From positions 1 through 46,275 of the forward strand of contig JBLNDL010000040.1 in NCBI GenBank assembly GCA_050261575.1: a stretch of 46,275 nt of DNA, read 5' to 3'. The DNA is from Sphingomonadaceae bacterium (GTDB lineage: Bacteria > Chloroflexota > UBA6077). The notes under the pieces were generated by a model. It searched no databases, was not told where the DNA came from, and saw only the letters and a program-made list of their open reading frames with translations. A program made the translations under genes and the position numbers. Positions 9,489 to 39,440 of the stretch are shown here, in pieces (the first letter of the stretch is position 1; the number at the start of each line of letters is the position of its first letter).

Positions 9489-10946
9489 GTGAGCGACGAA
9501 GAGTTCCGCATGGCCCTCACTTACGACGACGTACTGCTGGAGCCGAAGCACTCCGCCATAGTCTCACGACGGGACGTGGACACCTCCACCCGTCTGTCCC
9601 GCCACATCTCTATGGCCATCCCCATCGTCAGCGCGAACATGGACACTGTCACGGAGTCGGCCATGGCTATTGCGATGGCACGGATGGGAGGGATCGGAAT
9701 CATCCATCGCTTCCTGCCCATTCAACGGCAGGCGGATGAGGTCCGGCGGGTCAAACGGTTCGAGGGATGGGTCATCGAGGATCCCTACACCATCGGGCCA
9801 AACGACGAGGTGGCAGACGCCCGCGTTGCCATGACCAGGCACGGCGTCAGCGGCCTGCCAGTGGTGGACGAGCGCGGGCGGTTGGTGGGAATGCTCAGCA
9901 GGAGGGACATTCTCTTCGCCGCCGACTCCGAGCCGGTGAGGGCTCGGATGACCCCCCGAGACCGGCTGATCACGGCGCCGGCCGGCAGCGGGACCGCCGT
10001 TGCCAGGCAGTTGATCGAGCAGCACCGGGTGGAGAAGGTGCCACTGGTGGATGCCGGCGACATCCTCAGGGGGCTGGTGACCGCAAAGGATCTGGTCCGG
10101 AGTCTGCAATTCCCCTACTCTACCAAGGATTCGAAGGGGAGACTGAGGGTGGGAGCAGCCATCGGGGTAGTCGGCGATTACCTGGAACGCGCCCACGCCC
10201 TGGTCGAGGCGGACGCGGACCTCCTGGTGGTGGATGTGGCCCACGGCGACACGGATCTGGTTATCCGGGCCGTGGAGGCCGTGCGGCGCACGCTCGGGTC
10301 GGTCGAGTTGGTGGTGGGGAACGTGGCCACGGCAACGGGCACGGCCAACCTGATCTCGGCCGGCGTCGACGCCGTGAAGGTGGGCGTTGGCCCGGGCTCC
10401 ATCTGCATCACCCGAATGGTGGCGGGAGTCGGCGTGCCCCAGCTTACCGCCGTAATGGACTCCGCCCGTGAGGCGGCCAAGACCGGCGTCCCGATCATTG
10501 CGGACGGTGGCATCCGCAACTCTGGGGACATCACCAAGGCTCTGGCTGCGGGCGCCTCCTCGGTGATGATCGGCAACCTGCTGGCGGGCACCACCGAGAG
10601 CCCGGGGCTGACGATCCGTCGGGGTGGGAGGCCGTACAAGATCAGCCGGGGCATGGCATCCGCCGAAGCGGCGATAGCCCGGATGGAGCGAGAGCATCCG
10701 GAGCGGGGCTGGGCGGAGTGGGAGGATTCCCTGGAGCAGGTGGTCCCGGAGGGGGTGGAGGCTGCGGTACCCTACCGGGGGGACGCGAGCGAGGTGGTCT
10801 TCCAACTGGTGGGAGGTCTGCGCTCCGGGATGAGCTACTGCAACGCCCGAAACCTGGGGGAGCTTCAGCTCAACGCCAGCTTCGTCCGCATCACGGAAGC
10901 GGGACGTCGCGAGAGCGGCCCCCACGACGTCGAGTTGATGGGCTGA
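9489..10946 (+). CDS. IMPDH/GMP reductase family oxidoreductase with CBS pair (guaB-like, possibly GMP reductase)
   Basis: [20 protein letters not shown], tandem CBS domains, [14 protein letters not shown] and VPEGVE motifs. GGAGG RBS before GTG 9489; TATAAT at 9423-9428. Confidence 0.9.
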
Positions 10947-10953
10947 GAGGAGC

Positions 10954-10988
10954 CCTGAGTCCTGTGTGGTGTCCACACAGGACTCAGG
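10954..10988. repeat. 16-bp perfect hairpin in the intergenic region
   Basis: CCTGAGTCCTGTGTGG-TGT-CCACACAGGACTCAGG with no U-tract. Confidence 0.7.
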
Positions 10989-11012
10989 ACACAGGACTCG
11001 GGAGGGAGAGAG

Positions 11013-12497
11013 ATGCCTCCACAGAGATACGAGGGAACGGTTCGCGCCCCGGACTTTCCGGCGGGGCTGGACTGGCTGAACGTCGACCACCCGCTCAGCC
11101 TGCGAGAGCTGCAGGGCAAGCTGGTGCTGCTGGACTTCTGGACCTACTGTTGAATCAACTGCATGCACGTGCTTCCGCAGTTGCGGAAGCTGGAGGAGAC
11201 CTTCCCTTCGGAGCTGGTCGTGGTGGGGGTCCACTCCCCCAAGTTCACCGCCGAGCGCTCCACACCTAACCTCAGGCAGGCGGTGCTGCGGCTGGGGATC
11301 CACCACCCGGTGGTGAACGACGCCAGCATGAGAATCTGGTCCGAATACGGCGTCGGAGCCTGGCCCACCTTGGTGCTGGTCGATCCCGCAGGAAAGGTGA
11401 TCGGCGGACACGAGGGGGAGTTCCGTTTCCAGGAGTTCCAGCCGCTCATCACCGACATCCTGGCGGAGTTCGACGCTAAAGGGATGCTGGACCGACGGGC
11501 CATCGCCTTCCAGCCCGAACTGCCCCCGGAGTCCACCCTCCTCTTCCCCGGGAAGCTGCTTGCCGACCACACCTCCAGCCGTCTGTTCATCGCCGACTCT
11601 GGCCACCACAGGGTGGTCGAGGCGGGGATGGACGGACGCGTGCATCGGGTGTTCGGAGGGGAACGTGGGTTCATGGACGGCACGCCAGAGGTCGCCGCCT
11701 TCGACACACCGCAGGGAATGGCGCTGGCGGGCGAGCAGCTATACGTGGCGGACACGTGGAATCACGCTATCCGGCGCATCGACCTGGCGACCGGAGAGGC
11801 AATCACAGTCGCTGGGACCGGAGAGCAGGCCAGAAGGGTGAAGGAGGGACCGGCCCTCTCCTCTCCCCTCAACTCCCCCTGGGACCTGGTCCTGCACCAG
11901 GGCATCCTCTACATCGCCATGGCCGGATCCCACCACCTCTGGGCCTACGACCCCGGCAGCCAGGAGGTCACCCGCTATGCAGGAACCGGACGGGAGGCGC
12001 TGGCGGACGGTCCCCTTCAACGAGCCGCGTTCGCCCAGCCCAGCGGCCTCAGCAGCGACGGACAAGTTTTGTACGTCGCCGACAGCGAGACCAGCGCCAT
12101 TCGAGCGGTGGATCTCCCAGGAAGGGCGGGAATGGTGCGCACCCTGGCAGGGCTGGGGCTGTTCGAGTTCGGGGACGTGGATGGCGTCGGCGAGCAAGTT
12201 CGACTCCAACACCCCCTGGGGGTCGCCTTCGATCCCTCGGAGGGAGTCCTCTGCGTGGCCGACAGCTACAACAACAAGATCAAGCGGCTGGACCCCGGCA
12301 GCCTAGAGACACGCTCGGTGGCAGGCAGCGGGCCCGGCGGTCTGCGCGACGGGGTGGGTGAAACCGCGACCTTCTGGGAGCCGGGTGGGCTTGCCTGGGC
12401 GCAGGGAAAGCTGTACGTGGCCGACACCAACAACCACGCCGTTCGGGTAGTCGATCTGGCCAGCCTGCGCGTCTCCACTCTCGAGATCAGAGAGTAG
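11013..12497 (+). CDS. Thioredoxin-like + NHL-repeat protein (NHLRC2/SOQ1-like), probable selenoprotein (Sec at codon 47)
   Basis: ATG 11013 follows a GGAGGGAG RBS and is in frame with the 11163 ORF. It reads RAPDFP..LDWLN...[14 protein letters not shown](TGA)INCMH, then GVHSPKF, WPTLVL and NHL repeats ([44 protein letters not shown]). Confidence 0.88.
11151..11190 (+). promoter_or_regulatory. In-frame UGA and bacterial SECIS-like hairpin
   Basis: TGA at 11151-11153. Hairpin GCTTCCGC-AGTT-GCGGAAGC at 11171-11190; the loop starts 25 nt after the UGA and has G in its second position. Confidence 0.75.
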
Positions 12498-37682: not shown

Positions 37683-38594
37683 GTGAGGGTGATCATCACC
37701 GGGGGCACCGGCTTGATAGGCACCCCGCTAGCAGCGGGCCTGGCCTTCGACGGCGTTGAGGTCGTCGTCCTCAGCCGCGACCCCGAGCGGCATCCCGACC
37801 TTCCCAGGGGGGTGCGAGCCGAGAAATGGGACGCCCGAACCGCCACCGGTTGGAGTCACCTGGCCGATGGGGCCGACGCCATCGTCAACCTGGCTGGGGA
37901 GAGCCTCGCCGGAGGACCCTGGACCGAGGAGAGGAAGAGCAGGATCCTGCATAGCCGGCTGAACGCCGGACGGGCAGTGCTCCAGGCCGTGGAGTCAGCG
38001 GCCCAGAAACCTCGGGTCGTCGTGCAGGCCTCCGCCATCGGCTACTACGGCCCGAAGGGGGACGAGGAGGTCACGGAGGAGACCCCTCCCGGCAGCGATT
38101 TCCTGGCCCGAGTCTGCGTCGAGTGGGAGGCGTCCACCTCGCCGGTGGAGGAGATGGGCGTTCGCCGCGCGGTGATCCGAAGCGGCATCGTTTTGAGCAC
38201 CCGGGGCGGGGCGCTGCCCCGGCTGATGATGCCCTACAGGCTGTTCGTGGGGGGGCCGCTGGGAAGCGGGCGTCAGTGGTACTCCTGGATCCACATCGCC
38301 GACGAGGTGGCCGCCATACGCTTCCTGCTGGAGAACGAGTCGGCCCGAGGCCCCTTCAACCTCACGGCCCCCAACCCCGTGACCAACGCCCTCTTCAGCC
38401 GGCTGCTTGGCCGGGCGCTGGGCCGCCCGTCCCGGGTCCGCACCCCGGCCTTCGCCCTGTGGCTCCTACTGGGCGAGATGGCCACGACGGTGCTGAACGG
38501 GCAGCGGGTGATTCCTCGACGGCTGCAATCCCTCGGCTTCGCCTTCCGGTTCCCGCACCTGGAGGCCGCCCTGCGAGACCTCTTTCAAGTCTGA
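37683..38594 (+). CDS. TIGR01777 (YfcH-like) NAD(P)-dependent epimerase/oxidoreductase
   Basis: ITGGTGLIG, VNLAGE, ASAIGYYG, GGPLGSGRQWYSWIH and GPFNLTAPNPV motifs. Confidence 0.93.
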   Translation: MRVIITGGTGLIGTPLAAGLAFDGVEVVVLSRDPERHPDLPRGVRAEKWDARTATGWSHLADGADAIVNLAGESLAGGPWTEERKSRILHSRLNAGRAVLQAVESAAQKPRVVVQASAIGYYGPKGDEEVTEETPPGSDFLARVCVEWEASTSPVEEMGVRRAVIRSGIVLSTRGGALPRLMMPYRLFVGGPLGSGRQWYSWIHIADEVAAIRFLLENESARGPFNLTAPNPVTNALFSRLLGRALGRPSRVRTPAFALWLLLGEMATTVLNGQRVIPRRLQSLGFAFRFPHLEAALRDLFQV

Positions 38595-38837
38595 CACCCC
38601 TGTGTGGTCAGGCCGCAGGGGCAGTCCCCCGAGCAAGCGATGTGCTGTGAGGTGACACCCCTGTCCGGGCAGGCGACAGAGAGGACGCGGAGTGTCTGCT
38701 ATCTCCTCAGCAGTCACCGGTTGGCATGCGCTGCTCCTCGGGCGGGATCACGGTGTCTTTCGAGAACCGGACCGCACGGTCCGTTAGAGAGATCAACGTC
38801 TTCGGGAACCGCCATCCCTCGACACACCCCCTGCGGC

Positions 38838-38874
38838 GTGATGTAATTCGCACATTCTGTGCGAAATCTATCAC
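38838..38874. promoter_or_regulatory. Palindromic operator upstream of the DUF3796-XRE operon
   Basis: GTGATGTAATTCGCACA-TTC-TGTGCGAAATCTATCAC: two inverted GTG-N10-CAC boxes. Confidence 0.6.
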
Positions 38875-38892
38875 ACACGAGGGGGCTGGCAG

Positions 38893-39222
38893 GTGAGGCG
38901 CAGTTGGCTTCGGTTCCTCGGGTTTCTCGGACTTCTGGGGTTGCTCAGTCTGGTCACTTCCAACCCCGGCTTCGCGGGGTTCTTCGGGTTCTTCGGGTTC
39001 TTCGTCTATTGGAGCCTCGTGGACGACGAGAGGCTCCAGATCAACACTGCCAGGGCGGCGAGAAACGCCTTCGTGTCCGCGCTGGTAGCCTACCCTGCGA
39101 TCGTCGTCTACGGAGCCTTCGTCCCGGGGATGGCGCTGCAGGCTTACGCGATCGGCTTCGCGCTTCTCTTCACCCTGCAGATACTGGTCTTCAGCCTTTC
39201 GCTTGCGTACTACGAGCGCTAG
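38893..39222 (+). CDS. DUF3796-like small membrane protein
   Basis: [10 protein letters not shown]...GFFGFFGFF...DERL..N..RAARNAF pattern. Confidence 0.78.
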
Positions 39223-39236
39223 GACAGGAGACGAAG

Positions 39237-39440
39237 ATGGCACTGAGGACCAGGATCAGGGAGTTCAGGGCCAGGGACAACCTCACTCAGGAAGACCTGG
39301 CGAGACTGGTGGGAGTGAGAAGGGAAACCATAGTCCACCTCGAAAAGGGAGACTACAACCCCTCCCTCAAACTGGCGGTCGAAATAGCCAGGGTGTTCGG
39401 GACCACGGTCGAAACGCTGTTCTCCTTCACTGACGACTAA
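39237..39440 (+). CDS. XRE-family HTH transcriptional regulator
   Basis: [49 protein letters not shown]. Confidence 0.93.

Follow-up and report, generated by a model that had tools for sequence, protein, structure and literature searches.

Is an in-frame TGA the end of a protein, the mark of a damaged gene, or a codon for selenocysteine (Sec)? The question is raised by positions 11151-11153 of the DNA analysed here, a stretch of 46,275 nucleotides that we call the window (contig JBLNDL010000040.1, our C40, one of the 103 contigs of the 3.72-Mb assembly GCA_050261575.1 of a Sphingomonadaceae bacterium, placed by GTDB in UBA6077 of the Chloroflexota). We argue that the gene at 11013..12497 of the forward strand encodes a two-domain oxidoreductase and selenoprotein of the NHLRC2/SOQ1 family, in which the UGA at codon 47 is read as Sec via a bacterial Sec insertion sequence (bSECIS) and U47 forms a redox pair with C50; we put the probability of this reading at about 0.92. 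The argument proceeds from computed observations, namely, the reading frame, the conserved UGA, a covarying hairpin, the Sec machinery of the genome, the homology to SOQ1 and NHLRC2, and the distribution of the Sec form within one clade. Replacement of a cysteine (Cys) by Sec in the CxxC motif of a thioredoxin (Trx) fold is the commonest kind of bacterial selenoprotein. Of the family considered here, the human gene, NHLRC2, is essential and underlies FINCA disease, and the plant member, SOQ1, controls photoprotection.

Does the DNA on both sides of the TGA belong to one gene? With TGA translated as U, a single frame of 494 codons is open from ATG 11013 to the stop TAG at 12495-12497, the sole internal stop being TGA 11151-11153 in the context DFWTYC-*-INCMH; under translation table 11, the call is an open reading frame (ORF) at 11163..12497 (444 aa), which shares its frame with ATG 11013. 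The original prediction had drawn the gene in this way, with its start moved to 11013 on account of a ribosome-binding site there, and its coordinates hold throughout. As read from the sequence, this site (GGGAGGGAGAGAG, 11000..11012) contains GGAGG at 11001-11005, with a 7-nt spacer to the ATG, whereas inspection of the sequence before the annotated ATG 11163 reveals no comparable purine-rich, Shine-Dalgarno (SD)-like run.

If the TGA were a true stop, the product would be the 444-residue protein from ATG 11163, that is, a propeller with a Trx remnant devoid of the CxxC, and the 46 codons upstream would be untranslated or would make up a separate small ORF. This is what the gene caller reports, and the database record looks similar: the 17 closest proteins in a collection of 5.8 billion sequences (64-99% identity) are short, 440-473 aa, with 88-90% query coverage, and all six truncated relatives that were retrieved start at MH[VL]LPQLRK, with the Met four residues past the TGA. 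The upstream codons, however, bear the signature of translation. In 36 of these 46 codons, 51 distinct Sec-form sequences were compared: on average, a fraction of 0.19 of them deviates from the commonest base at codon position 1, 0.13 at position 2 and 0.41 at position 3, and a stop occurs in none of the 51. Hence, this part is coding, and the 36 codons are under purifying selection; downstream of the UGA there follows a conserved frame of 447 residues. Moreover, in the alignments the peptide from the upstream codons runs in register, residue by residue, with the N-terminal Trx half of both SOQ1 and NHLRC2; a protein begun at Met51 would be left without the active site of the Trx fold and without its first beta-strands. 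It is therefore highly improbable that translation ends here. As had been anticipated, annotation truncates the gene: what the databases store is a protein shortened at its N-terminus and deprived of the active site, and the full-length database matches, of at most 59% identity, are Cys forms.

What, then, is the complete protein? Its residues 11-484 align with the lumenal region of Arabidopsis SOQ1 (7djj, E 1.2e-116), residues 6-492 with human NHLRC2 (6gc1, E 3.7e-114), and residues 174-492 with positions 9-359 of the 360-residue NHLRC2 propeller chain (6g7w). The SOQ1 and NHLRC2 structures carry CCINC (e.g. FFTYCCINCIHLLP) where the window protein has C46-U47-I48-N49-C50 (11148..11162), and the TGA falls on the second Cys, which is the first Cys of the CxxC; this agrees with the family motif that the original prediction had named. 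In SOQ1, the redox-active pair, C431-C434, consists of the second and the last Cys of the motif (10.1101/2024.11.01.621559). Since this pair maps to U47-C50, U47 would be the N-terminal, attacking residue of the CxxC. The preceding C46 is replaced by Gly in locus L023 and in many Cys forms and thus appears not to be essential.

Judged from its sequence, the window protein is a member of the NHLRC2/SOQ1 Trx-NHL core family. Specifically, the Trx-like domain with the CCINC motif and the cis-Pro is present, Sec for the second Cys being the sole departure; the domain core spans residues 35-129 (11115..11399; Pfam Thioredoxin_8 at 6e-15, AhpC-TSA, Redoxin; weak matches to PF00578, 36.3 bits, and PF08534, 27.5 bits), and the cis-Pro position is W117-P118-T119 (11361-11369), WPT being conserved in the SOQ1 and NHLRC2 alignments. 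Directly after it comes the NHL-repeat beta-propeller (residues 174-492, 11532..12488; Pfam NHL at 1e-31), which is predicted by homology to have six blades. The third trait of the family, a domain of beta-strands at the C-terminus (CTD), is absent, as the protein ends two residues past the propeller alignment. The CTD of NHLRC2 is, however, called non-conserved (PMC6107167), so that its absence does not exclude membership in the core family. It is found in none of the 55 Sec forms described below, 54 of which have 444-464 residues after the U, the remaining one (L033) ending at a contig end; more than 540 residues follow the site in 44 of 58 Cys forms. One of the long Cys forms, P0020, has 656 aa; its alignment to SOQ1 extends through the CTD (7-640 of 7djj), and it has an extra hydrophobic N-terminus. 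The window protein is without either element. By eye, its own N-terminus contains no hydrophobic stretch and does not resemble a signal peptide, which suggests a cytoplasmic location. No NCBIfam model scores above its cut-off for this protein: the best is ResA (49.1 bits against 170), the selenoprotein model WAxxUGC_long reaches 23.7 bits against 300, and TlpA and StoA are also far below their cut-offs.

Could the TGA be an accident of this one genome, i.e. a nonsense mutation, or else a mistake of sequencing or assembly, in what is now a pseudogene? Damage of this sort is indeed apparent in one relative, L034 of genome G039, where the frame is shifted and the hairpin degraded. Yet, as an explanation of the window gene, an accident of this kind is extremely unlikely in the light of the comparative data. 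In the window genome and 60 relatives, 21 full or near-full matches were found (20 genomes, 49-100% identity), all with exactly one TGA, which occupies the same codon within FWT[YF]C-TGA-INC in 19 of the 21 loci and within G-TGA-INC in L023. In a sample of 401 genomes of the phylum, an orthologue (E <= 1e-80) is present in 81, with one TGA in 61 of them (62 matches) and none in 20; the proteins are 48-73% identical, which excludes cross-contaminated copies of one sequence, and both flanks of the codon are conserved. The codon position was confirmed in the 55 TGA loci that were fetched (51 distinct proteins, 45 distinct 63-nt segments), about 30 further TGA rows of the phylum sample being counts alone, and 58 fetched loci have TGC or TGT at the site, so that relatives of both kinds expected for a Sec/Cys pair are at hand. 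Outside this classification stand 13 loci, namely, nine partial or paralogous ones (L035-L040, L042-L044), the frameshifted L034 and L075, and L105 and L115 at contig ends.

The TGA is likewise stable in sequencing data. The locus, whole or in part, occurs in ten DNA runs from five studies, four of which (from three studies) were compared with the window; two of them, X1 and X4, share one study that may include the source sample. In the Logan contigs of X1 (10950-11195) and X4 (10950-11162 and 11133-11188), the TGA is intact with no differences, and none of the four runs lists a variant at 11151-11153, the related-strain contigs of X5 and X6 included.

Unpublished genomes enter some of the counts: G048 and G191 (Sec) and G095 (Cys) in the phylum sample, which without them holds 59 Sec and 19 Cys genomes; G048 and G037 in the 61-genome set; G048, G095, G191, G216 and G303 in the selA tally given below; and L021 (G048) and L022 (G037) as rows of the Sec-form alignment and the tree. 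No conclusion depends on them. As to the taxonomic range, 80 of the related loci are named, the nearest being 'Chloroflexi bacterium' metagenome-assembled genomes at 73% and 69% identity, which assigns the organism to the Chloroflexota, and all 24 named TGA loci belong to Chloroflexi, Chloroflexota or Dehalococcoidia records. Among 301 genomes sampled from the phylum of locus L090 (a Pyrinomonadaceae record), none of 27 orthologues has a stop, and the same holds for all 28 orthologues in 301 genomes from the phylum of L084 (a record titled Deltaproteobacteria).

How would the ribosome be instructed to read this UGA as Sec? Within the coding sequence, at 11171..11190, the TGA is followed by a hairpin, GCTTCCGC/AGTT/GCGGAAGC, with a perfect 8-bp stem and an AGUU loop at 11179-11182, translated as L54-P-Q-L-R-K59; the conserved 7 bp are 11172-11178 paired with 11183-11189. 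Between the A of the TGA and the first loop base there are 25 nt, and the G at loop position 2, followed by U, is where the original prediction had put it. Published constraints on bSECIS elements include a loop of 3-9 nt, a stem of 4-16 bp, a UGA-to-loop distance of 16-37 nt, a G among the first two loop bases, with G or U as its usual successor, and a minimum free energy of -7.5 kcal/mol or below (PMC13188914); the hairpin agrees with all of them (4 nt, 8 bp, 25 nt, G at position 2, -13.8 kcal/mol). None of 200 shuffles of its 20 nt folds as well (z = -4.77).

The stronger evidence is comparative. In an ungapped alignment of the 45 distinct 63-nt Sec-form segments (A1), 89.7% of the stem cells pair, as compared to 83.4 +/- 0.9% in shuffles and to 36-63% when the partners are slid by 1-3 columns; four pairs have changed on both sides, in 31 cells against 9.4 expected, and the covariation score is 0.246 against 0.119, none of 500 shuffles being as high by any of these three measures. 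The covarying pairs are 28-45 (CG 20, UA 16, UG 7), 30-43 (UA 38, GC 4, CG 2) and 31-42 (CG 41, GC 3, GU 1). The seven inner pairs form in practically every segment, the outer one in 13 of the 45, and in the loop G36 and T38 are invariant, with A35 and T37 conserved at 90% or more. In the same columns of the 58 Cys forms (A2), by contrast, 37.3% of the cells pair, which is no different from slid partners and is equalled by 116 of 500 shuffles. Locus by locus, 6-8 of the 8 stem positions are paired in the 55 TGA loci, with six in L045 alone, as opposed to 1-5 in the Cys loci, L056 excepted. The peptide differs accordingly, being [LF]PQLR[KR] in the Sec forms and [LI]P[DE]L[KR][KR] in most Cys forms, so that the family illustrates how a SECIS in a coding region constrains the protein (PQLRK as against P[DE]LK[KR]).

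A scan of the 3.7-Mb genome for an in-frame TGA with a stem of at least 7 bp and an [AG]GTT loop 16-37 nt downstream, flanked by frames open for at least 15 codons upstream and at least 30 downstream, yielded seven sites, and the NHLRC2/SOQ1-type gene is the only one with coding-like flanks; no other coding-like gene among the seven has such a stem-loop after an in-frame TGA. As an internal control of SelB preference, the scan was thus uninformative and was set aside. Rfam has no SECIS family that matches the window hairpin, its two sub-threshold hits being chance matches to microRNA families, and the fold downstream of the UGA in the selD gene of this genome contains no obviously similar hairpin.

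Given that the UGA is translated, is Sec the residue inserted? The codon could, in principle, be read through by near-cognate Trp or Cys insertion or under a reassigned code, with the hairpin acting as a generic read-through stimulator, and computation alone cannot tell the inserted residue. A biogenomic check, nevertheless, points to Sec. The genome encodes complete machinery: on contig C14, selA (595 bits) lies next to selB (331 bits), selD (354 bits) is of the Sec type, with one in-frame TGA of its own, and a tRNA-Sec with anticodon tca lies on C12 (ARAGORN), so that all four genes sought on the basis of the original prediction are present. The hairpin fits a SelB-type bSECIS in its spacing and its loop G-U, and the site is a redox Cys, where Sec/Cys pairs are described as the rule in selenoprotein catalogues (PMC13188914; GOS 2008). 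TGA is, furthermore, a frequent ordinary stop in this genome, closing 905 of the 2,042 open frames that reach 400 codons or more, as well as the IMPDH gene just upstream. Insertion of another residue thus appears very unlikely, and the reading originally proposed, a 494-aa UxxC selenoprotein, is strongly supported by the machinery, the conserved TGA and the covarying SECIS. In line with it, selA was found in 60 of the 61 Sec-form genomes of the phylum sample; the one without a match, G352, is 93% complete in 160 contigs and has a partial selB (207 bits). The SelD just mentioned (C65:2949-3887, L008) is likely to be a selenoprotein itself, with its UGA in the context SCAG-U-AGKMG.

Several considerations weigh against the Sec interpretation and its functional corollaries. 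The presence of selenium in the protein is an inference from the data above. The wider fold of 71 nt around the hairpin is unexceptional (z = -0.79 against shuffles) and was dropped as evidence in favour of the 20-nt hairpin and the comparative data; the weight of the SECIS evidence is comparative, not thermodynamic. The hairpin sits in a conserved peptide, and its conservation could be partly at the protein level, although the compensatory and synonymous changes, together with the contrast to the Cys forms, indicate that this is not the whole story. In the damaged relative L034 (G039:C88), the frame shifts by 1 nt after FWT and before the TGA, the hairpin is degraded and the peptide reads AVLRA, in a genome that is 99% complete and contains selA and selB; either this copy is decaying or the assembly is wrong there, and the gene can decay. 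Genes for selA are also found in 17 of the 20 Cys-form genomes of the phylum sample and in all four Cys-form genomes from other phyla, so that the Cys forms are not explained by absent machinery; since, in addition, 308 of the 401 sampled genomes (77%) have selA, the presence of the machinery discriminates only weakly, and it was abandoned as a discriminator of Sec and Cys forms. No RNA runs with the locus are on record. With regard to function, the SOQ1 CTD, which takes electrons from the Trx-like domain, is credited with methionine sulfoxide reductase (Msr) activity (10.1101/2024.11.01.621559); as this activity is assigned to a domain that the window protein lacks, the SOQ1 Msr mechanism cannot be transferred directly. 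Finally, the redox chemistry proposed for the family is not settled: insulin was not reduced by NHLRC2, whose biochemical function is called undetermined (PMC6107167).

With these reservations, the action of the U47-containing protein can be envisaged as follows. According to the bSECIS model, SelB with Sec-tRNA(Sec) would bind the hairpin as the ribosome pauses at UGA47; Sec would be inserted at this codon, whereupon the ribosome would unwind the hairpin and translate LPQLRK. By analogy with Trx-fold chemistry and the SOQ1 data, the U47 selenolate would then attack an oxidised group of a client bound in the cleft that separates the Trx-like domain from the propeller, C50 would resolve the adduct to yield an intramolecular selenenylsulfide, and a cellular reductant would regenerate the enzyme. 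Selenium insertion, this catalytic cycle, and the identity of the clients and of the reductant are what we infer rather than observe.

How did the Sec form arise? A quick maximum-likelihood tree was built from 109 distinct proteins (51 Sec, 58 Cys) under LG+G4, with SH-aLRT support only and a midpoint root; the site column was kept, as X in the Sec rows and C in the Cys rows. All 51 Sec forms fall inside one clade of 59 rows (support 99), alongside eight Chloroflexota Cys forms, and at least five changes between Sec and Cys are needed on this tree, three of them forced by well-supported branches. This pattern fits one Cys-to-Sec gain followed by reversions, the direction and number of changes not being proven by a midpoint-rooted tree. 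Two Cys forms are of interest here. L056 (G276), in the mixed Sec/Cys family f36, retains seven of the eight stem pairs, with the loop AACU in place of AGUU; the stem has the look of a fossil SECIS from before a recent change of Sec back to Cys, and so supports a reversion. P0023, a 495-aa database protein, is a full-length Cys form (YCCINCQHVIPQLRKLERKY) with the Sec-type peptide PQLRK, and is possibly another recent revertant. If so, the family provides a neat case of Sec being gained once from Cys and later reverting.

Some further loci deserve mention. In G047, two inverted Sec-form copies lie about 5 kb apart (C157:31136-32611 on the minus strand and 37858-39333 on the plus strand), with identical scores. 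In L075, a Cys form from a Blastocatellia record, matches in two frames meet just after INCMH, which points to a frameshift or an assembly error. Genomes of the same class contain a second, shorter paralogue with the Trx domain alone (L043 in G050, L044 in G056, and G052:C1:1884561-1884983), in which about 99 residues precede and 108 follow an in-frame TGA in the context EFWTY[GT]-U-INC, with a 7-bp stem after the TGA and a loop that begins with AGUU (AGUUUG); this paralogue would seem to be a related selenoprotein, and the SECIS loops of the two are similar. In the sequencing data, the Logan contigs of the four runs break or switch to related strains at 11162-11195, where short contigs with 2-6 differences pile up, which suggests that many related organisms in the soil and sludge samples share the conserved segment from CUINC to the SECIS.

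The surroundings of the gene are of less help. The neighbours are an IMPDH gene, which ends upstream at 10944-10946, a GH5 cellulase gene and a DUF1015 gene, and none of them provides a functional clue; this agrees with the NHLRC2 paper, where adjacent genes are described as not conserved (PMC6107167). Between the IMPDH stop and the ribosome-binding site, 10954-10999 contains an inverted repeat with perfect 16-bp arms (10954-10969 and 10973-10988) around a TGT loop; the element ACACAGGACTC, at 10975-10985, recurs right after it at 10989-10999. Either copy can pair with the 5' arm of the repeat, giving two near-isoenergetic folds, and in one predicted fold the SD would pair with CCUCC of codons 2-3. 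In L016, L017 and L018, which are from the same family, an IMPDH-type frame, judged by eye, also ends directly upstream, and the palindromes there are different or absent.

Has this protein been noticed before? A literature full-text search linking selenoprotein or selenocysteine to NHL repeat, NHLRC2, SOQ1 or Chloroflexota returned nothing relevant. Term searches of main texts found neither 'NHL' nor 'propeller' in the PMC13188914 review, deep-Sep 2025, the 2006 Genome Biology survey and the BSepDB paper, nor 'NHL', the only term used there, in the main texts of the GOS 2008 and ISME J 2016 surveys; PF01436 and PF13905 are likewise absent, by term search, from the catalogue table of the 2026 review (PMC13188914). 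NCBIfam has no dedicated model, and no NHL-fused selenoprotein is named in the catalogue texts so searched. The table of PMC13188914 does list 'Prx-like thiol:disulfide oxidoreductase' (PF00578), 'Redoxin family protein' (PF08534) and 'Thiol:disulfide interchange protein' (PF13098), and BSepDB reports Dehalococcoidia genomes with 46-49 selenoprotein genes. Homology-based pipelines may already have counted the window gene under a generic label for Trx-fold UxxC proteins, and we put the odds that no one has yet reported a Sec protein as NHLRC2/SOQ1 at about even. Selenoproteins with a Trx-fold UxxC are a well-known kind; what would be new here is the NHL-fused member.

About 20% of the genomes sampled from the phylum carry the gene, three quarters of them in the Sec form, and it is systematically mis-annotated, with no NCBIfam model to rescue it. 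The redox role of CCINC is debated, and a lineage that bears the expense of placing Sec at its second Cys provides strong evolutionary evidence for redox catalysis there. Since Sec is selected almost only at catalytic redox positions, the Sec form, if real, would mark Cys-90 of NHLRC2 and Cys-431 of SOQ1 as the true catalytic nucleophile, and it would provide a naturally hyper-reactive, minimal Trx-NHL orthologue for trapping the substrates of the family. No enzymatic activity has been found for human NHLRC2, and the bacterial Sec proteins offer a simpler system in which to find out what the family acts on. When all this is combined into one statement, namely, that we are dealing with the first recognised natural Sec form of NHLRC2/SOQ1, gained once from a Cys ancestor in the Chloroflexota, where it is now the majority form (61 of 81), with a few reversions, one at least marked by a fossil stem (L056), and that the second Cys of CCINC is the catalytic nucleophile, the arguments for and against appear to us evenly balanced.

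Finally, the window protein can be set beside the systems that it resembles. With the catalogued UxxC selenoproteins related to Trx and peroxiredoxin, it shares the thioredoxin fold, the UxxC motif and the existence of Cys homologues, and it is set apart from them by the catalogue descriptions, which, in the term searches above, name no NHL propeller. It is similar to the C-terminal Trx-like domain of DipZ from M. tuberculosis (2hyx; E 4.5e-24 over residues 7-176), the motif of which is SCINC (PMC6107167), but DipZ and the reductases of the ResA/TlpA type are extracytoplasmic electron-transfer modules without a propeller. Its hairpin conforms to the consensus bSECIS in being a stem-loop just 3' of the UGA inside the coding sequence, with G-U at loop positions 2-3, and differs from it in being very short and simple (7-8 bp), with an almost invariant AGUU loop. 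In SOQ1, the counterpart of U47-C50 is C431-C434; unlike the window protein, which ends at the propeller, SOQ1 has, in addition, a HAD domain, a membrane helix and the CTD. Human NHLRC2 (6gc1, 6g7w) has the same succession of Trx-like domain and NHL propeller, the same position of CCINC and the same cis-Pro in WPT, whereas the second Cys of its CCINC is, in the window protein, Sec.

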